A stretch of DNA of 64,000 bases from Patescibacteria group bacterium (GTDB lineage Bacteria; Patescibacteriota; Patescibacteriia; SG8-24), in contig JAQTNC010000001.1 of assembly GCA_028714475.1 (NCBI GenBank), forward strand, positions 22,678 to 86,677, written 5' to 3'. The notes beneath the pieces were generated by a model, which was not told where the DNA came from, made no database searches, and saw only the letters and a list, made by a program, of their open reading frames with translations. Shown here piece after piece: positions 2,120 to 59,133 of this stretch; position 1 is the first letter of the stretch, and each line of letters starts with the position of its first letter. The position numbers were made by a program, and so were the translations under genes.

Positions 2120-3001
2120 CTACGGCTGCAAAACGTCCTCCGTCCGGCCGTCAATGCTGATGACGACATCACGAACCTCCGGGAACTGCTTGAGCGTCTG
2201 GATGATCTGCGACCGAATGGCAATCACGCGACAGGAACCGCCGATGCCTTTCTCCAGGCTCGGCTTGAAGTCCGCCGTCACGACGCCGCTGCCGTCCGTC
2301 GTCACGGACTCGAGCCCAGCGCCAGCCGGCAAGGAGGTGAAATAGCCCGAATTTTTTTCCGCGTCGGTCGGGCCCTTGAGCAGTTCCGTCAGGGCCTGAT
2401 GATAAATTGATCCCTTTGACGACACGACACGCTCGACCGACCGCACCACGGAACAATCCGTGCCGCCGTCAGCCGTAGTGCCGAAAAAAACGCGGATGGA
2501 CACGGTGTCCAACTGGACGAACGAGACGTGCCGCACCTCGACCGGCGACAGCTGGCCGTCATGCTCATAGGAAACCTCGACCGTGCCGTTGCCCTGAACG
2601 GTCGCGGGCAAGGCGAAGGACTGGCTGAAGCGGCCGAAGGCGGACGACTGGCTTTCGCGGATGACCGAAACGCGCGTGGCGGCGATGACGGCACCCGTCT
2701 CGTCCTTGACGGTGACAGTCAGGTCGCCGATGTCCGTTCGCGCCCGACCGGCCGCGTCAAAAGACAGGGACAGCCTTGCCCCTTCGGCCGGGGTTTCCAA
2801 AACCACCGCCGAGACCGGATCCGTCGCCCCTGAAGACGACGGCGAGGCATCCTTGGGCGGCACGGCCGGCAGGGCGGTTTGATCGTTCTTGACGCTGGAC
2901 AAGGCCGGTTCCGGCTGGATAGTCGGAGCGGTTAGGCGCCCAACAGAAAATCCGGCGACGGCCACGATGACCACGAGAAGGATGAAAACGATTTTTTTCA
3001 T
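2120..3001 (-). CDS. GerMN-domain protein, membrane anchored
   Basis: Internal ATG at 3001 begins MKKIVFILLVVIVAVAGF (signal/anchor). C-terminal region FFGTTADGGTDCSVVRSVERVV...YHQALTELLKGPT...VISIDG resembles the GerMN/Gmad2 fold. The upstream 75 codons of the track ORF are arginine-rich and lack a signal, so they are probably not translated. Confidence 0.6.
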   Translation of the reverse strand: MKKIVFILLVVIVAVAGFSVGRLTAPTIQPEPALSSVKNDQTALPAVPPKDASPSSSGATDPVSAVVLETPAEGARLSLSFDAAGRARTDIGDLTVTVKDETGAVIAATRVSVIRESQSSAFGRFSQSFALPATVQGNGTVEVSYEHDGQLSPVEVRHVSFVQLDTVSIRVFFGTTADGGTDCSVVRSVERVVSSKGSIYHQALTELLKGPTDAEKNSGYFTSLPAGAGLESVTTDGSGVVTADFKPSLEKGIGGSCRVIAIRSQIIQTLKQFPEVRDVVISIDGRTEDVLQP

Positions 3002-3119
3002 GGGTTTAACATCAAACTTCCAACGAATGGATGATACCAGATTACGGGGCGTGAGCGAAGTTCGGCCGACGTCCCTTTGACAGCAAAAGGTTATCAAAAT
3101 CCAGGGTAAAAACCCTGGT

Positions 3120-3128
3120 TGTGGATAA
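3120..3128 (-). promoter_or_regulatory. perfect DnaA-box 9-mer (TTATCCACA on the minus strand)
   Basis: TGTGGATAA, preceded by the hairpin CCAGGGtaaaaaCCCTGG. About 120 nt upstream of the GerMN gene start. Confidence 0.5.
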
Positions 3129-11555: not shown

Positions 11556-11621
11556 AGGAGTACTGGAGTACTGAAGTGCTGGAGTGCTGGAGTATCTTCA
11601 GTACTTCAGCACTTCCCAGCT
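11556..11621. repeat. ctgaagtgctggag-family imperfect palindromic intergenic element
   Basis: ggagtactggagtactgaagtgctggagtgctggagtatcttcagtacttcagcacttcccagcttcagaac. Confidence 0.7.
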
Positions 11622-12977
11622 TCAGAACTTCTCAAATCCTTTCCTCCCCAGCAACTTATACATGTGCTTCTTGCCGGCCTCCACGCCGGGTTGGTCATAG
11701 GCATTGACGTCGAGGAGTTCGCCGGCGACGGCCGTGGCGATCTGGAAGAAATTGACGAGCGCGCCGACGGCTTCGGGGCTGACGCGCGGGACGAAGACAG
11801 TGCCGTTCGGCCGGCCATTTTCGGTAAGCGCCAGACTGGTCGCCGCGCGTTCGGCGTGGAGGATTTCCCCGAGCCGATGGCCGGCCATGTAGGCCGTGCC
11901 TTCGATGTCCGGGTAGGGGTTCGGCAGGCGGAAATCCGCGTCCGGACTCTCGACCTCGATGAAGGTCAAGGTCTTGTCGAACGGCCCCTCATTATATAAC
12001 TGAACCTGTGAGTGCTGGTCGGTCGCGCCGAGCGCGGCGACCGGGGTAAAACCGTGGTTAACGACCTTGCCGTGGCGGTCGAGCCTCTTGCCGAGCGACT
12101 CGGCCCAGAGCTGACGGAACCAGGAACCGAACTCGCGGAGGCGTTCGCCGTAAGGCATGAGCACGGTGATGTGCTGACTGCGGCGGACATAGCCGTCGTG
12201 CTGAAGGCCGGCGAACATGAGCGGGCCGTTGTCCATCGTCTTGGCCGCGGCGAACTCGTCGCGCACGGCGCGACAGCCGACGACGAGGCGCCGCACGGGG
12301 ATGCCGGCGCAAGCCGCCGGAAACAGTCCGACCGGCGTGAGCACGGAGAATCGTCCGCCGATGTCAGCGGGCACCGGCAGGGTGCGGTAACCTTCGCGAT
12401 CAGCGATCTTGCGCAGCGTTCCTTTTTCCGTGTCAGTCGTGGCGATGACGTGGCGGGCGTGCCGATTCACGCCCACGGCTTTCACCAAACGGTCGCGAAG
12501 CAGAACGAACGCGCTCATCGGCTCGATGGTGTCGCCGGATTTGGAAATGACATTGATGGCCGTCTTGCGCCAATCAAGGTCGCGAAGCAGCGCGGCCATC
12601 TCGTCCGGATCAGTGTTCGCGCCGATGAAACGGATCTCCATCCCCTTCCCCGCCGGCTTCAGTGCCTTGACGAGCATCCGCGCGCCCAAGTCCGAGCCGC
12701 CGATGCCGATGACGACGAGCGTCTTGAACTCGCGCCCAACGGTCTTGGCCATCGCCTCGACGGCCTTCAAGTCAGCGGTTCGTTCCGGAATCGCCATGAA
12801 CCCGAGCTGGCCGGAGCGCCATTGCTTGATGACCGCCGCCCGGACAGGCTCCAACCGACGGGCCAAATCAATCAAGTCGGCCTTGGGCATCATCATGTTG
12901 CCGCGTTCCGCCGTCATGCGCGAATAGTCGAAGCGAACGAAAGGCTTTACTTCCGCCTTTTTCGTGGTTTTAGGCAT
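11622..12977 (-). CDS. pgi: glucose-6-phosphate isomerase (short ~450-aa type)
   Basis: Motifs VVIGIGGSDLGARM, SKSGDTIEP, GGRFSVL..VGL, and the C-terminus YDQPGVEAGKK. Confidence 0.9.
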   Translation of the reverse strand: MPKTTKKAEVKPFVRFDYSRMTAERGNMMMPKADLIDLARRLEPVRAAVIKQWRSGQLGFMAIPERTADLKAVEAMAKTVGREFKTLVVIGIGGSDLGARMLVKALKPAGKGMEIRFIGANTDPDEMAALLRDLDWRKTAINVISKSGDTIEPMSAFVLLRDRLVKAVGVNRHARHVIATTDTEKGTLRKIADREGYRTLPVPADIGGRFSVLTPVGLFPAACAGIPVRRLVVGCRAVRDEFAAAKTMDNGPLMFAGLQHDGYVRRSQHITVLMPYGERLREFGSWFRQLWAESLGKRLDRHGKVVNHGFTPVAALGATDQHSQVQLYNEGPFDKTLTFIEVESPDADFRLPNPYPDIEGTAYMAGHRLGEILHAERAATSLALTENGRPNGTVFVPRVSPEAVGALVNFFQIATAVAGELLDVNAYDQPGVEAGKKHMYKLLGRKGFEKF

Positions 12978-19904: not shown

Positions 19905-19998
19905 GGGGTGAAGGTTGATACTAGGCACTAGGCTCTAGGTTCTAGAGGTAACTAGTGCCAAGTGCCAAGTGCCTAGTGCCTAGTGTCTAGTGCCTAGT
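19905..19998. repeat. ctaggcactag / ctagtgcctag palindromic element inside the ABC efflux operon (between ATPase and permease genes)
   Basis: ctaggcactaggctctaggttctagaggtaactagtgccaagtgccaagtgcctagtgcctagtgtctagtgcctagtgtctagg. Low GC relative to the flanks. A shorter relative ctagtcactagccactag sits at 10255-10275. Confidence 0.75.
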
Positions 19999-20000
19999 GT

Positions 20001-20678
20001 CTAGGACACCACTCGCCCATCGCGTATGCGCACGATGCGCTCGGCGCGTTCGGCGACGTCCGGCTCATGCGTCACCATGACGATGGTGTTGCCGTCCTTG
20101 TGCAGGCCGCGGATGATTTCCATCACCTCGTCCGACGTCTTGGTGTCGAGATTGCCGGTCGGCTCGTCGGCCAAGATGAATGACGGGTCGTTGATGAGCG
20201 CCCGGGCGATGGCCGCGCGCTGCTGTTCGCCGCCGGACATCTGGTTCGGGTTGGCGTCGATGCGGTGGCTCAAGCCGACCTTCTCGATGAGCATGCGGGC
20301 GCGCTCGCGAATGAGTATCGGGTCAACCGCGGTGTTCGAATATTCCGTCGGCAAAAGCACATTTTCCAGCACCGAGGTGCGCGGCAGGAGGTTGTAGGCC
20401 TGGAAGATGAAGCCGAGTTTGCTGTTCCTGATGTCGGCGCGCTGGTCCTCGGTCAACTGGCTGGCGTCCTTGCCCTCGAACCAATACTTGCCGGAGGTCG
20501 GAGACAACATGAAGCCAAGCGCGTACATGAGCGTGGACTTGCCGCATCCGGACGGCCCCATGATGGCGATAAACTCCCCTTTTTTGATATCCAAATCAAT
20601 ACCCGCCAGCGCCCGCACGATACGGTCGCCCTGCGTGTATTCCTTGGTCAGCTGTTCGAGGCGGATAAGGCTGGGCAT
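20001..20678 (-). CDS. ABC transporter ATP-binding protein (MacB/LolD-like)
   Basis: ATG at 20678 begins [14 protein letters not shown]. Walker [10 protein letters not shown], signature MSGGEQQR, Walker [13 protein letters not shown]. Confidence 0.9.
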
Positions 20679-23061: not shown

Positions 23062-23145
23062 CAGAATGCCGGAGTTCTGGAGTGCTGAAGTGCTGGAGTC
23101 TTCAGCACTCCAGCACTTCCCCGCCCCAGCACTATTACATTAGGT
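23062..23145. repeat. ctgaagtgctggag-family imperfect palindromic intergenic element
   Basis: ggagttctggagtgctgaagtgctggagtcttcagcactccagcacttcc. Confidence 0.7.
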
Positions 23146-23186: not shown

Positions 23187-23195
23187 TGTGGATAA
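23187..23195 (-). promoter_or_regulatory. perfect DnaA-box 9-mer
   Basis: TGTGGATAAG, about 130 nt upstream of the marR start. Confidence 0.5.
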
Positions 23196-26266: not shown

Positions 26267-26275
26267 TGTGGATAA
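26267..26275 (-). promoter_or_regulatory. perfect DnaA-box 9-mer
   Basis: TGTGGATAAT, about 70 nt upstream of the dCMP deaminase start. Confidence 0.5.
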
Positions 26276-28949: not shown

Positions 28950-29030
28950 AGAAGTCAGTGCGGGAGCGCAGAAGTACTGAAGTGCTGAAGAGGGAAAAGC
29001 TTGACAACTGTTGAACGGCCCAACAACTTC

Positions 29031-29094
29031 TCCAGCACTCCAGCACTCCAGCACTCCAGCACTCCAGCACTCCAGCACTCCAGCACTCCAGCAC
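29031..29094. repeat. (CCAGCACT)8 perfect 8-bp tandem repeat inside a ctgaagtgctggag-family palindromic element
   Basis: Eight uninterrupted CCAGCACT units. The upstream partner agtactgaagtgctgaag lies at 28972-28991. The track ORFs 28527..29078 and 28831..29094 (VLECWSAG repeats) are translations of this repeat. Confidence 0.9.
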
Positions 29095-29174
29095 TTCCTA
29101 CTGGTTCGCCGTCGTTAGCCATGATAATCTTAGGTTAGCGGACGGTTCACGCCTTTAGAGCCGCCCCCATCCGC

Positions 29175-30094: not shown

Positions 30095-30185
30095 TGCCAA
30101 GTTGTGGAGTAATGGAGTCGTGGAGTAGTGAAGCGACTATGAAAAACAAAATCGACTTTTCTACTTCACGACTTTACAACTTAAC
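30095..30185. repeat. gtggagtagtgaag-word palindromic element
   Basis: gttgtggagtaatggagtcgtggagtagtgaagcgact...agtcgacttttctacttcacgactttacaac. Confidence 0.6.
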
Positions 30186-30197
30186 GACTCCAACCCC

Positions 30198-34867: not shown

Positions 34868-35599
34868 TCAGGCGGTCAGGGCCAGGTAATAATCCTCGAG
34901 CGAACCGTGTCCCACGTTGGCGCGCCGGCCGAGCTCGGCCACTGTCCCCTCCTCGATGAGCTGACCTTCCTTGAGGATGCCCAGGCGACCGCACAGCTCC
35001 TCGGCGACGGCCAAGGTGTGCGTCGAAAGCAGGATGGCCCCGCCGGCCGACGCGAACTCACGGAGCATTTCCTTGGTGATGCGAGCGCTCTGCGGATCCA
35101 GGCCGATCATCGGCTCGTCGATGAGCAGGAGTTTCGGTTCATGCAGGAGCGCCGCGAGAATCGAGATCTTCTGGCGGTTGCCGCGCGAATACTGGCCGAA
35201 GGCGCCCTCGGCGACATCCTTCAAGCCGTAGCGATCAAGCAGCATCGCCACGCGCTCGTCGCGCCGTCCGCGCTCCATGCCGAAAATCTGGCCGACGAAC
35301 TCCAGGAACTCGCGACCGGAAAGGCGGTCGTACGCCTGCGGGTCGTCCGGTATGTAACCGAGGCCGCGCTTGGATCGCGTCGGGTGACGGATGACGTCGA
35401 GGCCGTTCACCTCGATTGTCCCCTTGGTCTGCCGGTAAAGGCCGGCGATGGTCTTGATGGTCGTGGTCTTGCCCGACCCGTTCGGACCGATAAGGCCGTA
35501 TATCTCACCGGGCATGATTTCTAGCGACAAATCCCGCACGGCCGTGACCGTCCGGAATTTCTTGGTGACTTTTTTGAGCAATAATGCTGGTTCCGACAT
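34868..35599 (-). CDS. ABC transporter ATP-binding protein
   Basis: Walker A GPNGSGKTT, signature YSRGNRQK, Walker B LLLIDEPMIGLD. Confidence 0.9.
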   Translation of the reverse strand: MSEPALLLKKVTKKFRTVTAVRDLSLEIMPGEIYGLIGPNGSGKTTTIKTIAGLYRQTKGTIEVNGLDVIRHPTRSKRGLGYIPDDPQAYDRLSGREFLEFVGQIFGMERGRRDERVAMLLDRYGLKDVAEGAFGQYSRGNRQKISILAALLHEPKLLLIDEPMIGLDPQSARITKEMLREFASAGGAILLSTHTLAVAEELCGRLGILKEGQLIEEGTVAELGRRANVGHGSLEDYYLALTA

Positions 35600-35798
35600 A
35601 GGGCATCATTATAGCACAAAACTCAAACCTTGCGCGAGGCCATTTTTCGGCTCCGCTTGGCGCAAAATTTGACAGCCTAGACGGGCATGGTCTACGCTCG
35701 AAATAGAGAGAGTACCTACTAAATCCGTAGCGGCGACAGGGCGTTTTCACCCCGTTGAAAGCGCCGGTCACCACCTGGCAGAAAGGAGGAAGGCCCTT

Positions 35799-36302: not shown

Positions 36303-36345
36303 AAAGCCCCCGCCGCAAACACGGCGGGGGTTAAAAATTAGTTTG
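36303..36345 (+). terminator. rho-independent terminator
   Basis: AAAAGCCCCCGCCGcaaacaCGGCGGGGGTTAAAAATTAGTTT. Confidence 0.8.
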
Positions 36346-36420
36346 AAGTTTTTAGTTGGTAGTTTGTAGTTGCCGGCCAGTTTGTCCTAAAACTACAGAC
36401 CGCAAACTACCAACTAAAAC
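36340..36420. repeat. tagttggtagtttg / caaactaccaacta palindromic element
   Basis: The 17-bp perfect arms ttttagttggtagtttg ... caaactaccaactaaaa flank a 24-nt loop. Sits directly after a canonical terminator. Confidence 0.75.
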
Positions 36421-36532: not shown

Positions 36533-38356
36533 ATGTGGAAACATGTTCTCGGCTATTTCCGGCAGTTCGCCGTGCTCAAGGGCATGCGGCGCGAGTACTG
36601 GGGCGTCCAGTCCATCAACTTCCTGGATTGCCTCTATGGCTTCGCCTTCGGGACCGTCTCCACCATCTTCATGTCGCAGACCCTCGGATTCAGCGACATC
36701 GGGGCGGGTGCGGCCCTGTCGTGGCTCGGCATCTTCACCAGCGTCTTCCTCTTCGCCTCGGGCCCCATCGTGGACCACTTCGGCCTCAAGAAGTCGCTGT
36801 TCCTGTCGATCTTCTTCGTCATCCTGATGCGCGGCGGCATGGCCCTGTGCGCCTTCTGGCCGCTCCTGCCACATCACGAAGATATCTACGCGTGGTTCGC
36901 GGGAATCGCCGGCCTGACCGGCGACGGCAGCTGGTTCCATCACGTCGCCTGGCGACCGTACAGCTACCTCGCCTTCCTGGCCCTCGGCGGCCTGCCCGTC
37001 TCGGTGAAGAACACGGCCTACCACATCGGGAACAAGCGGTTCACCACCGCCGCATCCCAGTCCGCGGGCTTCAACCTGTGGTACATCATCATGAACGTCT
37101 CCGCGGTCGTCGCGGGCCTCGTGGTCGACCTGTTCCGCACGGATTGGCACCTGCACTACGGCTGGTTCATCGTCCTCGGCGTCGGCACGGCCGTCCTCTC
37201 GCTCCTCTCGACTTGGTTGCTCATCAAAGACGAGCGCCCGGCCGAAGAGCGAGACAGACCGCAGACAAAAAATGCGCTGCCGCCCCCGTCAGAAAATGAA
37301 GCTGGTTCGCCCGACCTAGGGAAGGTCACGGTATGGCTGAAACTGTTGAGGTTGCTCCCAGTTTGGAGCCTCGTTCTGCTAACGATGACTTGGCTCGGCC
37401 TAGTCGTTGCCAGCGGTTACGTTTGGCGTCATACCCCGCGCTTCATCCAAGTGCCGCTCCTGTACGTCTGGCGCAAGCTGGTCGTCGTGGCGCGCTACAC
37501 GCGAAAAGTCTGCCGAGAACCGTCCTTCTGGCGAATGATGGCGACTGTCAGCAGTTACGTTTGGCGTCACACCCCGCGCTTCATCCGCGTGCCGCTCCTG
37601 TTCGTCTGGCGAAAACTGGTCATCGTTTGGCGCTACACGCGAAAAGTCTGCCGAGAGCCATCCTTCTGGCGAATGATGGCAGCCGTCACCCTGAATCTCG
37701 GGGTCAGCTCGGTCTTCATCTACTGGTCGATGATCTCGCCCAAGTACTGGGACCGCACCATCGGGCCGGACGCGGCCATCGGCAAGCTGTCGGCCATCAA
37801 CCCGGTCATCATCGTCGTCGGTCTCGTCCTGCTGGTGCCGATCATCAACAAGTTCAAGACCTTCACGATGCTGACCTGGGGCTCGTTCATCTCGGCCGGG
37901 AGCCTCATCCCGCTCGTCATCCCGTGGTACTGGGTCAGCTCCGATCCGCGGACGGCCTACTACGCGACGAGCATCGTCTCGATGGTGGTGTTCTCGTTCG
38001 GCGAGATGATGTTCTCCCCGCGCCTCTCGCAGTACATCCTCGCCGTGGCCCCGGTCGGTCAGGAGGGAATCTATTCCTCCTTCGCCGCCCTGCCGTCGTT
38101 CGTGAGATCGACGATCGTCGGGTTCACGTCCGGCGTGATGCTCACGAGGTGGTGTCCGGAAACGCGGGTGCTCCACGGCGTCGAGAAACCTCTCCGCGAG
38201 GTCATCGCCGCTCGGATCCTGCCCTACTGGGACACGCCCGAGGCGATGTGGCTCATCCTGACGGTAGCCGCCATCGTCGGACCCATCCTCATGGTGGTCC
38301 TGCACAAGTGGTTCGTGAGCGGGATGCGTCACGACACGACGGTCGCGGCAAATTGA
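36533..38356 (+). CDS. MFS transporter with a 47-aa tandem duplication in the central loop
   Basis: 12-TM MFS topology. The duplicated segment is SGYVWRHTPRFIQVPLLYVWRKLVVVARYTRKVCREPSFWRMMATV / SSYVWRHTPRFIRVPLLFVWRKLVIVWRYTRKVCREPSFWRMMAAV (37412-37552 / 37553-37693). Confidence 0.8.
   Translation: MWKHVLGYFRQFAVLKGMRREYWGVQSINFLDCLYGFAFGTVSTIFMSQTLGFSDIGAGAALSWLGIFTSVFLFASGPIVDHFGLKKSLFLSIFFVILMRGGMALCAFWPLLPHHEDIYAWFAGIAGLTGDGSWFHHVAWRPYSYLAFLALGGLPVSVKNTAYHIGNKRFTTAASQSAGFNLWYIIMNVSAVVAGLVVDLFRTDWHLHYGWFIVLGVGTAVLSLLSTWLLIKDERPAEERDRPQTKNALPPPSENEAGSPDLGKVTVWLKLLRLLPVWSLVLLTMTWLGLVVASGYVWRHTPRFIQVPLLYVWRKLVVVARYTRKVCREPSFWRMMATVSSYVWRHTPRFIRVPLLFVWRKLVIVWRYTRKVCREPSFWRMMAAVTLNLGVSSVFIYWSMISPKYWDRTIGPDAAIGKLSAINPVIIVVGLVLLVPIINKFKTFTMLTWGSFISAGSLIPLVIPWYWVSSDPRTAYYATSIVSMVVFSFGEMMFSPRLSQYILAVAPVGQEGIYSSFAALPSFVRSTIVGFTSGVMLTRWCPETRVLHGVEKPLREVIAARILPYWDTPEAMWLILTVAAIVGPILMVVLHKWFVSGMRHDTTVAAN
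37412..37693 (+). repeat. 141-bp x2 in-frame tandem duplication within the MFS transporter gene
   Basis: 37412-37552 and 37553-37693 are about 90% identical at nucleotide level and encode 47-aa duplicated loop segments. Confidence 0.85.
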
Positions 38357-38459
38357 GTCGTTAGTTCAGCCGGCACTTCGAGCTTGCTGCCCGGTTCTCC
38401 TCTTAACGGAGAGCCGGTTTTTTGTGTTTAGTCATAAATTTCAACGGTGCCTGTCCCCC

Positions 38460-38468
38460 TTATCCACA
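38460..38468 (+). promoter_or_regulatory. perfect DnaA-box 9-mer in a hairpin loop, plus an adjacent degenerate box
   Basis: CTGTCCCCcTTATCCACAgttttttcGGGGACAG. A reverse-orientation GGGGATAAC follows 25 nt downstream. Confidence 0.45.
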
Positions 38469-38599
38469 GTTTTTTCGGGGACAGTCCCCTGAAAATCTGG
38501 GGATAACCTGGCACGTATACAAAAACCGATCCAGCAAGCGGGTGCTGAATCGGCGGTGAGGTGCGGCGGGCAACGAAGAGAAGGGGCTGCGAGCTAACT

Positions 38600-40757: not shown

Positions 40758-41795
40758 TCAGTTCAGCACGATATGCTCCCACGGGAAACCGTCGCGGCCG
40801 AAATGCCCGTAGGCGGCCGTCTGGCGGTAAATGGGTCGGCGCAGGCCGAGTCGCTCGATGATGGCGCGCGGCCGGAAATCAAATTGATCCTTCAAATATC
40901 CAGTCAGGTCGCGCCCGTCGCCGCCGACCGCGCGGAGCATTACCGGCTCTTCCTTGCCGATGACGTAAGCGACGGAAACGAGACAGTTCTTGGCGTGGCC
41001 GTTTGCGACGATGTTCTTCGCGGCGAAGCGCGCCATATATGCGCCCGAGCGATCCACCTTGGTCGGATCCTTGCCGGAGAACGCGCCGCCGCCGTGCGGG
41101 ATGAGTCCGCCGTAGGTATCCACCATCAGCTTGCGGCCGGTGAGCCCGGTGTCCGCGCGGAATCCGCCGTCCACGAACGAGCCGGTCGGGTTCACGTAGA
41201 TGCGCGTCGCGCCCGGGTCGCCGAGGAGCGGATCAACGAGATGCTTGAGCAGGAGCTTCTTGATTTCCGCGACGCCGATGTCATCACTGTGTTGGGCCGA
41301 GACGACGATCGCGTCAACGCGACCGTGGTCAACGGTCACCTGCGACTTGCCGTCCGGCTTGAGCCAGGTGAACTCCGGATGATTGCGGCGCAGGTCCGCG
41401 AGGCCCCAAGTCAAACGGTTCGCGAGCACGACCGGTTCCGGCAGGAATTCCGACGTCTCGCACGTGGCGTAGCCGTACATGATGCCCTGGTCGCCGGCGC
41501 CGCCCACGTCCACGCCGCGCGCGATGTCACGCGACTGTTCCTCCACGTTGGTGAAGACCTCGAGTTCGTCGTCGTAGCCTATGTCGCGATAGACGCGCTC
41601 TGCCACCTGGGCCAAATCAATTTCCGCCTGCGAAGTGACTTCGCCGCCGATCATGAGCGCGCCGTGAGAGCCGAAAACCTCCACCGCCACGCGGCTCGCT
41701 GGGTCACGGCTCAAGTAGGCGTCCAGAATGGCGTCAGCGATTTGGTCGCAGACCTTGTCCGGGTGGCCTTCGGTGACGGATTCGACGGTTTTCAT
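40758..41795 (-). CDS. metK: S-adenosylmethionine synthetase (short 345-aa form)
   Basis: ESVTEGHPDKVCDQIAD, GGGAFSGKDPTKVDRSGAYMAR, FVDGGFRADTGLTGRKLMVDTYGG. Confidence 0.9.
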   Translation of the reverse strand: MKTVESVTEGHPDKVCDQIADAILDAYLSRDPASRVAVEVFGSHGALMIGGEVTSQAEIDLAQVAERVYRDIGYDDELEVFTNVEEQSRDIARGVDVGGAGDQGIMYGYATCETSEFLPEPVVLANRLTWGLADLRRNHPEFTWLKPDGKSQVTVDHGRVDAIVVSAQHSDDIGVAEIKKLLLKHLVDPLLGDPGATRIYVNPTGSFVDGGFRADTGLTGRKLMVDTYGGLIPHGGGAFSGKDPTKVDRSGAYMARFAAKNIVANGHAKNCLVSVAYVIGKEEPVMLRAVGGDGRDLTGYLKDQFDFRPRAIIERLGLRRPIYRQTAAYGHFGRDGFPWEHIVLN

Positions 41796-41798
41796 GAC

Positions 41799-41807
41799 TG
41801 TGGATAA
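41799..41807 (-). promoter_or_regulatory. perfect DnaA-box 9-mer immediately 5' of the metK start codon
   Basis: Minus-strand TTTATCCACAgtcATG. It sits in the divergent region shared with the metallophosphoesterase gene. Confidence 0.5.
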
Positions 41808-42026: not shown

Positions 42027-44141
42027 ATGGCAAACCGGAAACCAGCCCGTCCGACTGCTACCGAAGAGACCGAGTGCCGCATCCTCGTGGCCTCCCAGCT
42101 GATGTACCCGAGCCACGATCACCGCGTGGGATTCCTGAAGCTCATGGCGCAAGTCGCCAAGGAGCGGGACGCCCACTACGTCGTCATGGCCGGAGGACTG
42201 GTCAGCGAAAAGGGCGTGAAAGACACGCGCCGAGGCCTCGAGCGACGGCTGAAGAAGCTCGACAAGGAGCAGCAGGCCCTCGAGGAGAAGCACGAGAAAA
42301 CGACCAACCCGCGGACTCGGCGCGCCCAAGAGCGCCGACTGGCAACCATCGCGAAGAAGCAGCAGCGGTTCACCCGCTTCCTGCATCACCTGGAGCCGTC
42401 GGCCATCGCCAGGCAGTTGGCACAAGCGATTCCGAGTTTCGTGAACGCGGCCGGGGATCCCATCAAGATGTATGTGTTCCCGTCCCCGCAACTCGACGGC
42501 GTCATCGGCAACCAAGTCGCCGACATCCTGTCGGCCAGGCTGCGCAAGGGCGAAGTGTTTTCCTACCCGCAGGACAATCCGACCCTGCTGGCCACCCAGG
42601 CCGGCAAGAGGGTCGAGGTCCTGGTGCCGATGCACGGCAGTTTCCGCGGTGAGTACTCGTCGACGCCGATCCAGCGCCGTTTGCTCGAGCGCATGAAGCT
42701 GCCGAGGCGGCGTTTGCCGGATCTCTTCATCGTCGGCGGTCACGGCGTCACCTGGTTCAAGCCGATCGGGAATTACCCGGTGCCCATCGTCGGCGTGCCG
42801 ATGATGAACGGCTCGTCCGCGGTACAGGTCGCGGAAAACCAGGTCGGTGTGACGCTCATCACGTTGCGGCGCGGCGACCCCGAGCCGACCGTGGAGGTCA
42901 TCCCGCTCCAGGACGCCCTGCTCACCGAGCTCATGCACATCCGGATGCCCAAGAAGGTCAAGCCGCGCCAGAGGCAGCTGCTCGAGATCCTTCAGCGAGA
43001 AGGCGAGCAGACCATCGGCGTAATGGCGGACAAGACCGGCCTCGACAGGGAACAGATCGACGCGGCCCTGCGCCCGTTCGTCGGTGACGGCACCGTCAAC
43101 AGGCAATGGGACCTGAAGTGGCACGAGGACTCGGGGCGCTGGGGTTGGAACCCGTATTGGGTACGCAAGTACCTGGAGTACCCGCCCATGGCGGCCGCCC
43201 AAGCCACGGACACGATCACCGCGTTCGGTTGCCTGCATGCGGCCTCCGTGTGCAACGACCCGGAACTGTTCCTGGAGACCCTGCCTCGATCCATGATCGA
43301 GAACGGCTCCAACCTGCTCATCGGCGCCGGCGACTTCACGAACGGCGACAAGCACCCTGGGCTGGTTCAGGAAACGGTCTTCCGGATCAAGGCCGGCGAA
43401 CAGGAGCTTCTGGCCGGAGAGATGGTCGCCAAGGCCATGCTCAAGGTGTTCTACCACCGGTTTGCCGCCGCCGTGGCGACGAATCGGCCGACCACCCCCG
43501 TGCAAGGCCTCGCGCTGGTCAATGCCTGCCTGCCGGATTTCCGCTACATCCTCGGCAACCACGACTTGTGGGTCGGGGATCGCGGTATGATCCCGCTCGA
43601 CGGGTTCCGGCGCATGGCGGTCGATGTCCTGTTCGACGCCATCGAAGCGGCACTCGGCGAACTGGATCTGACGGTTCGCGGCCTCAAGCGTGCCATCGAG
43701 GGCAAGGTGAAGCTGGTGGGAGAGGAAGAGAACGAGCGCCTGACGCTGCCGTCCGGGCTCCGCGTTGGTCTCACGCACCCGCACATGGGCCGGACGAAGA
43801 CGGAAAGCATTCGCACCCAGGAGGCCTTGGCCTTCATGCGCGACTGCCACATCGTCTTCGTGGCCAACTTCCATGTCGGTTCCGTGACGGCCATCTATGA
43901 CTCGGAACTGGGCCAGCGTTTCGGCGTCCAGCTCGGCACGATCCTGCAGGGTTCCGGCTTCGAGCGTCACCGCATGAAGGAAGTCGACAACCACATCGCG
44001 GTCTGCCATGTCGGCTCCACGAACGGCCGCATCGTTTGGCACCGGCACACCTATCGCGACGGCGTCCGCTGGACGAAGCCGCGGTTCGCACCGGATCACG
44101 CCTACCAAGCGGCCCGCAAGGCCGTTGGGTTGGTCGCCTAA
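42027..44141 (+). CDS. protein with two calcineurin-like metallophosphoesterase domains (the first degenerate) and a coiled-coil insert
   Basis: RBS GAAGGAGAG. Domain 2 has GCLHAAS, LLIGAGDFTNGDKH and ILGNHDLW (GD/GNHD motifs). Domain 1 has RILVASQ..SHDH, VVMAGGLVS and FIVGGHG. The overlapping antisense ORF 41919..44108 was rejected on composition. Confidence 0.65.
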   Translation: MANRKPARPTATEETECRILVASQLMYPSHDHRVGFLKLMAQVAKERDAHYVVMAGGLVSEKGVKDTRRGLERRLKKLDKEQQALEEKHEKTTNPRTRRAQERRLATIAKKQQRFTRFLHHLEPSAIARQLAQAIPSFVNAAGDPIKMYVFPSPQLDGVIGNQVADILSARLRKGEVFSYPQDNPTLLATQAGKRVEVLVPMHGSFRGEYSSTPIQRRLLERMKLPRRRLPDLFIVGGHGVTWFKPIGNYPVPIVGVPMMNGSSAVQVAENQVGVTLITLRRGDPEPTVEVIPLQDALLTELMHIRMPKKVKPRQRQLLEILQREGEQTIGVMADKTGLDREQIDAALRPFVGDGTVNRQWDLKWHEDSGRWGWNPYWVRKYLEYPPMAAAQATDTITAFGCLHAASVCNDPELFLETLPRSMIENGSNLLIGAGDFTNGDKHPGLVQETVFRIKAGEQELLAGEMVAKAMLKVFYHRFAAAVATNRPTTPVQGLALVNACLPDFRYILGNHDLWVGDRGMIPLDGFRRMAVDVLFDAIEAALGELDLTVRGLKRAIEGKVKLVGEEENERLTLPSGLRVGLTHPHMGRTKTESIRTQEALAFMRDCHIVFVANFHVGSVTAIYDSELGQRFGVQLGTILQGSGFERHRMKEVDNHIAVCHVGSTNGRIVWHRHTYRDGVRWTKPRFAPDHAYQAARKAVGLVA

Positions 44142-44223: not shown

Positions 44224-44291
44224 CAAATCTACCCGGCAGATTTGACGCGAAAACTGCCGGGTAGATTTGGAGTCAAAACTGCCGGGTAGAT
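44224..44291. promoter_or_regulatory. three-box repeat array (one 15-bp box inverted relative to two direct copies), candidate operator or attenuator
   Basis: AAATCTACCCGGCAG atttgacgcgaaaa CTGCCGGGTAGATTT ggagtcaaaa CTGCCGGGTAGATT. Box 1 is the exact reverse complement of boxes 2 and 3. It lies 77 nt upstream of the gene at 44368. Confidence 0.55.
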
Positions 44292-44367
44292 TCCGACCGT
44301 CGCAGACCGCTTGACGTCCTCCCCCGCCCTGCTACGGTAAAAATTACCCCCACCCAAGGAGGTCATC

Positions 44368-48130: not shown

Positions 48131-48215
48131 GGGGAGTGGCAGAGTGGCAAAGAAAATTGTGCTTTGCGACCCTGCGACTTTGCAACTATGCCACTATGCA
48201 ACTTTTTTATTATCC
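48125..48215. repeat. gtggcagagtggcaaag / ctttgcaactatgccac palindromic element
   Basis: ggggagtggcagagtggcaaagaaaattgtgctttgcgaccctgcgactttgcaactatgccactatgcaac. Confidence 0.6.
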
Positions 48216-53844: not shown

Positions 53845-53925
53845 GGGTGAGTTGTTGAGTTGTTTGGTTGTTGAGGATACGCCTCTCACCAACCAAACAA
53901 CCCAATCACTTAACCACCCAATAAC
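53845..53925. repeat. gttgttgagttgtttgg / ccaaacaacccaa palindromic element
   Basis: gggtgagttgttgagttgtttggttgttgagg...ctcaccaaccaaacaacccaatcac. Confidence 0.6.
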
Positions 53926-59040: not shown

Positions 59041-59133
59041 TTTTGTAGTTAGTAGCTAGTTGCAAGTAGCTAGTAGTCGTAAGCAATTGTTTAAGTAACT
59101 ACTCACTACTTGCTACTAGCTACTCACTAATCG
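59041..59133. repeat. agtagctagt-word palindromic element between convergent genes
   Basis: gtagttagtagctagttgcaagtagctagtag ... ctactcactacttgctactagctactcac. Confidence 0.65.

Follow-up and report, generated by a model that had tools for sequence, protein, structure and literature searches.

The window, by which we mean the whole 64-kb stretch of DNA analysed here, carries ordinary housekeeping, transport and envelope genes. Relatives of its MetK protein are named Candidatus Uhrbacteria or Parcubacteria, and judged by this homology the window comes from a high-GC (61%), Uhrbacteria-like CPR bacterium and not from a Firmicute. (Several of the ‘Gammaproteobacteria’, ‘Bacteroidales’ and ‘Eisenbacteria’ labels among the MetK relatives look like taxonomic misassignments.) Dispersed over the window are five exact copies of one 9-mer, which reads TGTGGATAA in one orientation and TTATCCACA in the other: the former is found on the + strand at 3120, 23187, 26267 and 41799 and on the - strand at 38460, just where an earlier note on this DNA had put it. 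Site 1 lies inside an over-long ORF; the real GerMN/Gmad2 gene, with a 293-aa product, begins at 3001, and once this start is set all five copies are intergenic, so that the claim that every copy is non-coding holds. Three of them (3120, 23187 and 38460 on the - strand) extend to TGTGGATAAG, as had been noticed before. Four precede a gene start, at gaps of 118 nt (GerMN), 128 nt (marR), 69 nt (deaminase-like gene) and 3 nt (metK), a range of 3–128 nt rather than the 10–135 nt first given. That these four point toward the downstream gene is correct as a description and has little statistical weight as evidence, since genes here are mostly on the - strand.

Nothing in the window resembles an origin, in agreement with the earlier note: neither dnaA nor dnaN was found in the 64 kb, the boxes are dispersed, and no GC-skew turn or inflection occurs across it, whereas an oriC combines several boxes with an AT-rich unwinding element, usually beside dnaA/dnaN. 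Rfam and tRNA scans of the window gave no matches, so a riboswitch or RNA gene does not explain the sites. The coordinates of the five sites and of the features around them are collected in the table.

Table. Features at the five sites, elsewhere in the window and in related loci (for the boxes, the strand is that of TTATCCACA or its 1-mismatch form; arrows give the reading direction).
Feature	Coordinates	Strand	Description
Site 1	3120..3128	-	perfect box, TTATCCACA on the - strand
Site 1 palindrome	3091..3128		arms 3091-3107 (TTATCAAAATCCAGGGT) and 3112-3128, 17 nt, 82% complementary
Site 1 terminator-like hairpin	3118->3101		palindrome core, hairpin of the upstream 1835-aa gene, then ATTTTGATAA
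Site 2	23187..23195	-	perfect box overlapping a -35-like hexamer
Site 2 promoter-like sequence	23192->23163		TCCACA-N18-TATAAT, upstream of the marR/efflux operon
marR start	23058		ATG
Site 3	26267..26275	-	perfect box between the S41-peptidase terminator and the deaminase-like gene
S41-peptidase terminator	26345->26315
Deaminase-like gene start	26197		GTG, preceded by an AAGGAGG Shine-Dalgarno
Site 4	38460..38468	+	perfect box, left end of a 47-nt near-palindrome
Site 4 partner	38498..38506	-	1-mismatch box (TGGGGATAA on the + strand), inverted, right palindrome end
Site 4 near-palindrome	38460-38506		arms 38460-38482 and 38484-38506, 83% complementary
Convergent terminator-like hairpins	38391..38554		38391-38417 on +, 38554->38525 on -; bracket site 4
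Site 5	41799..41807	-	perfect box before the metK ATG (41795)
Promoter-like site upstream of metK	41886->41858		TGGACA-N17-TATTTT, extended -10
metK	40758-41795		345 aa
704-aa gene	42027-44141		divergent from metK, ATG at 42027
Tandem repeat	44224-44292		spacer after the 704-aa gene; 25-nt unit, 2.8 copies, 79% matches
Tandem duplication	37411-37680		inside an MFS-transporter gene; 138-nt unit, 2 copies, 90% identical
Tandem-unit hairpins	867-894, 2059-2111, 11557-11631, 19921-20004, 23067-23133, 28957-29095, 30105-30189, 36339-36371, 48134-48203, 53848-53875, 59045-59129
Tandem-unit example	29030-29095		CTCCAGCA x8.2
ABC-transporter extended -10 region	window 35599-35620; L084 14180-14206; L095 5135-5159
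Box upstream of the ABC-transporter operon	L084 14139; L095 5092		1-mismatch box, TTATCAACA
dnaA-dnaN region of L002	192-2554		box cluster in spacer 1195-1383

Site 1 lies 28 nt past the stop codon of an 1835-aa surface-protein gene. The box is the outer end of a palindrome whose other arm carries at its own outer end a 2-mismatch box, TTATCAAAA; this degenerate partner may be the T-tract of the terminator read on the other strand, and by a rough estimate a 7/9 match that close is not significant alone. Downstream of site 2, the marR leader contains an unrelated long hairpin of 8-nt repeats, AGTGCTGGAGTGCTGAAG-ac-TCCAGCACTTCAGCACTCCAG. Site 3 lies 10 nt upstream of a TTGACA-N17-TAAGGT sequence, read by eye and with a -10 below the threshold of the scan. 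At site 4 the earlier note had described an 8-bp hairpin (CTGTCCCC/GGGGACAG) with the box in its loop: the hairpin is present and is better described as a 47-nt near-palindrome, with a fold of -18.1 kcal/mol (z = -4.2). The second, degenerate box reported there is also present, its start 38 nt after that of the perfect box and separated from it by a 29-nt gap rather than the 25 nt stated. The gap between the two convergent terminators that holds site 4 is roughly 85 nt long and, with terminator-like hairpins on both sides, is probably not transcribed. The divergent 704-aa gene has its ATG 219 nt away from site 5, which lies downstream of a promoter-like site and so within the predicted metK leader. 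The five sites have an intergenic location in common and do not have a promoter geometry in common. We rejected the box as a promoter element in its own right: a -35 is matched at site 2 alone, the sites do not share a spacing to a -10, and for site 5 the -10 would fall inside metK.

The metK gene encodes a short form of the protein typical of the CPR, and it has neither a SAM riboswitch (no Rfam match) nor a recognisable Shine-Dalgarno sequence; the box takes the position where the latter would be expected. Of the gene labels in the earlier note, Pfam bore out Germane+Gmad2, MarR, dCMP_cyt_deam_1 and S-AdoMet synthetase. The label ‘metallophosphoesterase’ for the 704-aa gene was not borne out: it has no support from Pfam, NCBIfam or the PDB, only GNHD-type alignment motifs. 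Homologues of about 700–725 aa occur in L083, L084, L086 and L094, with GNHD, GD and LHAGS-type phosphoesterase-like motifs and again no Pfam, NCBIfam or PDB match. The protein evolves fast (32–37% identity where MetK has ~80%), while its gene is kept divergent from metK and adjoins UvrD; a single-sequence AlphaFold model of the 704-aa protein was unusable (pLDDT 38.7). Elsewhere in the window, the tandem duplication in the MFS-transporter gene repeats a 46-aa segment (…YVWRHTPRF…VCREPSFWRMMA…). Many intergenic spacers carry tandem 7–8-nt units followed by inverted copies, forming long near-perfect hairpins that may be terminators or RNA-stability hairpins made by slippage.

Five copies are far more than the window would be expected to hold. 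Dinucleotide shuffles predict 0.12 copies of the exact box and an order-3 Markov model 0.057 (P = 4.6e-9), so that the figure of ~0.5 given earlier was too generous; 0.06–0.12 are expected. By contrast, the window has a single 1-mismatch box (at 38498) against 5.2 expected. When all 9-mers were ranked without bias, the box was the top independent word after one unrelated family of tandem units, AGTGCTGG, which has 26 copies with at most 1 mismatch against 2.5 expected and is also found in relatives’ spacers. The 60-nt flanks of the five copies are unrelated to one another, which excludes a longer repeat built around the 9-mer, an outcome the earlier note had named as one that would undo its reading. 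A dispersed, REP/MITE-like repeat was rejected likewise, as similarity ends at the core and the abundant AGTGCTGG family is separate. Three of the sites consist of a lone box and the other two have one degenerate partner each; with two boxes per site at most, none approaches a datA-type cluster of at least 3–5 boxes within a few hundred bp.

For comparison we assembled nine independent high-GC relatives (L001, L030, L082, L083, L084 and L092–L095), whose MetK proteins are 76–82% identical to that of the window. Most share the window’s gene order around UvrD, the ~720-aa protein and metK; it is not conserved in L001 and L030, the only two close relatives returned by a genome-collection scan with MetK, which was saturated by universal peptides. 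A metagenome scan with the 704-aa protein found no loci, and one with its alignment found three, of which only L088 was usable as a new relative (L089 proved to be the same contig as L084, and L090 measures only 1.5 kb). Many distant CPR and non-CPR loci from the same searches served as controls. The relatives contain four further perfect boxes, all four intergenic. Density is uneven, with 5 boxes in the 64-kb window (~1 per 13 kb) and 4 in the 154 kb of relatives (~1 per 38 kb); five of the nine relative loci have no perfect box, and no 1-mismatch box except in metK or ABC-transporter spacers. No functional theme was found among the genes flanking the relatives’ boxes.

To rank the box among words of identical composition we used its 1680 permutations. 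In all DNA of the window it comes 1st (5 copies) and in all DNA of the relatives 2nd (4 copies); in intergenic DNA alone it comes 1st in both, with 5 copies against 2 for the runner-up in the window and 4 against 3 in the relatives. The same word is unremarkable in low-GC CPR (1 copy in each of two GC bins, 580th–889th) and in non-CPR loci (7 copies, 303rd), and stands 24th in other CPR with GC of at least 0.5 (3 copies against 0.61 expected).

We then pooled the window and the nine relatives (219 kb: 193.7 kb coding and 25.6 kb intergenic) and compared counts with nulls made by shuffling synonymous codons in coding DNA and bases in intergenic DNA. Intergenic DNA holds 9 perfect boxes against 0.16 expected, a 57-fold excess, while coding DNA holds none (0.11 expected). 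With 1 mismatch, coding DNA has 1 box against 10.35 expected, a count as low as which was reached by 0 of 300 shuffles, and intergenic DNA 7 against 3.95. With 2 mismatches the coding count is 155 against 197.0, a 21% depletion again not reached in any of 300 shuffles (intergenic: 41 against 49.4), and with 3 mismatches the depletion is gone (coding 1808 against 1806; intergenic 348 against 357). The coding depletion thus follows similarity to the consensus. The 1-mismatch coding deficit is the lowest among 1145 same-composition words with comparable expectation; the same test on controls gave ratios of 0.94–1.11 for non-CPR loci, 0.91 for low-GC CPR and 0.57 for other high-GC CPR. Since the synonymous-shuffle and permutation controls exclude composition, composition does not account for the gradient. 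Such a gradient is expected if a protein binds the consensus tightly and its binding is useful between genes and harmful inside them. Finally, 6 of the 9 perfect boxes have a partner with at most 2 mismatches within 70 nt (p = 0.013).

It is in the metK-upstream spacer that the box recurs between lineages, and this is the one of the five sites that our conservation comparison covers. In 5 of 11 lineages this spacer has a box with at most 1 mismatch (p < 2e-4): shuffled spacers gave a mean of 0.43 lineages, and 0 of 5000 shuffles reached five. The box is perfect in the window and in L083, has 1 mismatch in L082 and L030, and is a convergent pair of 1-mismatch boxes in L094. Position and orientation differ between lineages, which looks like site turnover under selection. 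A weaker echo was seen in 26 more distant CPR loci, where 6 have a box against 2.0 expected (p = 0.017), among them a perfect one in a Kaiserbacteria genome. Within this comparison the metK spacer thus has a box near a promoter that is conserved in relatives, as would be expected of a DnaA-regulated promoter, and its recurrence fits a regulatory site. In addition, L084 and L095 carry a 1-mismatch box at the same position upstream of an ABC_tran/ABC_tran_2 operon; the window and L082 lack it. The promoter of this operon has an extended -10 (TGnTATAAT) in three lineages, and its position only 8 nt before the ATG points to a leaderless transcript. Both extended -10 promoters and an upstream motif resembling TTGTCAA are met with repeatedly in the clade.

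The 9-mer is the canonical pan-bacterial DnaA box, matching the consensus TTATCCACA at 9 of 9 positions in the five copies here and in the four of the relatives, and it is non-random in frequency or placement, as a box under selection should be. From the biochemistry established for E. coli, any canonical DnaA would bind such perfect boxes with high affinity in either of its nucleotide states. A more distant CPR genome, L002, illustrates the use of this box family: its 190-nt dnaA-dnaN spacer contains five 1-mismatch boxes in a typical oriC arrangement, and in its DnaA the domain-IV segment GGRDHTT..H is retained as in E. coli DnaA; in the DnaA domain IV–DNA structure these residues have a role in base contacts. 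(L002 is a MAG labelled ‘uncultured Gammaproteobacteria’ and evidently CPR, with 35% GC and a CPR-type MetK 63% identical to that of the window.) The data support the view that the motif is a selected protein-binding site with an exact match to the DnaA consensus. Because DnaA specificity is here taken from that consensus and not from this lineage’s own dnaA/oriC, we infer binding at the window’s sites, and infer it strongly. Our literature search found no paper linking DnaA boxes with Patescibacteria and none linking DnaA with metK.

We therefore consider it probable that the five 9-mers are high-affinity consensus-type DnaA boxes, kept by selection in intergenic spacers, some of them acting as local operators and all together as a sink for DnaA. 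Each perfect box would be occupied by DnaA domain IV, alone or with a weaker inverted partner. Locally, DnaA would modulate transcription at boxes overlapping or flanking a promoter or leader, the candidate targets being the divergent metK/704-aa spacer, the -35 region of marR and the region upstream of the deaminase-like gene’s promoter. Globally, dispersed boxes at ~1 per 13 kb here would form a chromosomal sink that buffers free DnaA (initiator titration), and at ~1 per 13–38 kb a sizeable sink would be expected in a genome of roughly 1 Mb. Box-like sequences inside genes would be purged by selection because bound DnaA obstructs transcription or wastes scarce initiator. Schaefer and Messer reportedly described, in the late 1980s, the DnaA/dnaA-box complex as a transcriptional roadblock, a single bound box being able to stop RNA polymerase; by analogy, a single-box roadblock would explain selection against boxes in genes as well as the box in the metK leader or those at gene ends. 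That DnaA is the binder, and what its binding does, we infer from the pattern. Site 4, set between convergent terminators, site 1, set at a terminator, and the purge of near-copies from all genes lead us to favour occupancy itself, over one particular promoter logic, as the selected property.

The earlier note had proposed that DnaA, or another protein reading this motif, more likely acts as a transcription factor at these promoters, which is borne out in part. A selected site, the exact consensus and the recurrence in the metK spacer of 5 of 11 lineages speak for this; as a general claim it is weakened by the lack of a common promoter position, by sites 4 and 1 lying at terminators and by the absence of a functional theme. 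The corresponding alternative, a pure DnaA regulon in which each box is the operator of an adjacent promoter without collective titration, seems unlikely to us. Four of the five boxes are upstream of a gene start, one overlaps a -35-like hexamer, the metK association recurs across lineages, and TTATCAACA keeps its place before the ABC-transporter operon in both L084 and L095. However, site 4 sits between convergent terminators and site 1 abuts one, start-codon distances from 3 to 128 nt make for inconsistent promoter geometry, and the flanking genes have no functional theme. A regulon alone would also leave unexplained the 10-fold purge of near-consensus boxes from all genes; a promoter regulon explains the 57-fold intergenic enrichment and the graded coding purge no better than DnaA occupancy or titration does.

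Less likely still, and in our view improbable, is another lineage-specific protein, whether a global regulator or a DnaA domain-IV paralogue, with the likeness to the DnaA box due to coincidence or to shared domain ancestry. Enrichment and purging are indeed lineage-specific rather than universal among DnaA-bearing bacteria, and the specificity of the lineage’s cognate DnaA is presumed from the consensus. On the other hand, with reverse complements merged, about 1 in 131,000 9-mers would match the DnaA consensus 9/9 by chance; boxes of this family make up an oriC-like cluster used by DnaA in the CPR; and in a genome with a canonical DnaA these sites would be bound anyway.

The uptake sequences of Neisseria and Pasteurellaceae occur as inverted pairs around hairpins, and known uptake sequences are found about once per kb and are common inside genes. 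An uptake-sequence-like or genome-maintenance signal, that is, a mark of self-DNA for competence, recombination or segregation, would account for perfect copies far outnumbering near-copies and for some copies forming inverted pairs around hairpins, and CPR bacteria carry comEC-type uptake genes (PMC12102498). Yet a density of only ~1 per 13–38 kb, the lack of any copy in 194 kb of coding sequence and the purge of near-copies do not fit, and the identity with the exact DnaA consensus would go unexplained. We rejected a DNA uptake sequence (DUS/USS) for its density and coding avoidance, and regard any signal of this kind as very improbable. Chance, a compositional artefact, a dispersed repeat or a promoter hexamer, the least probable readings of all, could draw on AT-rich 9-mers being likelier in AT-richer spacers, on the copy that doubles as a -35-like hexamer and on other same-composition 9-mers that reach 4 copies in the whole window, but they are effectively refuted by the permutation ranks in intergenic DNA, their replication in independent relatives, the unrelated flanks, the lack of a common spacing to a -10 element and the controls on graded coding depletion.

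How does this pattern compare with model organisms? In E. coli the excess of boxes is modest: about 308 TTWTNCACA sites, where equal base use predicts roughly 280. For its chromosome, titration by dispersed boxes is an established mechanism, and it has been put forward as an ancient mode that suits slow growth (Olivi et al. 2025, PMC12371093). The window’s boxes are like the dispersed boxes of E. coli, which are over-represented consensus-type 9-mers outside oriC thought to buffer free DnaA above all at slow growth (PMC12371093). Unlike in E. coli, the exact consensus is here ~57-fold enriched in spacers and absent from genes, from which near-copies are purged. Box position along the E. coli chromosome is analysed in PMC12371093, in which the word ‘intergenic’ is absent, and the same paper assigns a large share of the chromosome’s titration to datA, DARS1 and DARS2.

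In B. subtilis, eight DnaA-binding regions are known, and these are box clusters. One study reports that DnaA is stably bound in vivo at eight regions between genes (PMC2533591), and it and a second state that the regions outside oriC regulate their neighbours and restrain initiation (PMC2533591, PMC3245932). The lineage studied here resembles B. subtilis in having intergenic DnaA-box regions outside oriC that DnaA would bind. It differs in having single boxes or pairs instead of clusters, at a much higher density and in an unrelated phylum. Three of the five boxes are solitary, which, set against the B. subtilis clusters, counts against our preferred reading.

Selection against spurious transcription-factor or sigma-factor sites in coding DNA is a general population-genetic concept. 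The graded deficit of near-consensus sites, fading with more mismatches, is what that concept describes; unlike the general case, the deficit here is strong (10-fold) and lineage-specific, and our literature search found no report of a graded coding deficit for DnaA boxes. What sets the pattern apart from model organisms is how large the intergenic excess is, that perfect boxes are strictly absent from genes and near-copies purged in a graded way, the single or paired arrangement and the restriction to one CPR lineage, and none of these box features was found reported for Patescibacteria in the literature searched.

A bolder version of the preferred reading, in which the boxes are a sink as well as operators, is that this ultra-small, slow-growing CPR lineage times its replication principally through titration by some 50–100 dispersed perfect boxes. 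We hold this to be doubtful, though conceivable. If DnaA were so scarce per cell that off-target boxes are strongly deleterious, the purge from genes would be explained, and the lineage would exemplify in nature the titration-only, ‘ancient’ mode that has been put forward for slow growers.

CPR bacteria (Patescibacteria) cannot be grown alone, and they have small genomes and limited biosynthetic capacity; we know of nothing on how they control chromosome replication or global transcription. The pattern described here is real, non-random and biologically meaningful: it consists of extra-origin DnaA boxes in a phylum whose replication control is unexplored. Altogether, retention of the box between genes and its removal from coding DNA suggest a genome-wide role for DnaA away from the origin in this lineage. 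The two-way signature (57-fold intergenic excess and 10-fold deficit of near-copies in genes), absent from non-CPR controls, offers a testable handle on this role. It predicts loci that would be occupied by DnaA, among which metK, encoding SAM synthetase, stands out as a conserved target. As an index computable from a genome, combining intergenic enrichment with coding depletion, it could be mapped over the bacteria as a whole, where it would pick out lineages dependent on titration or on DnaA in the role of a global regulator.
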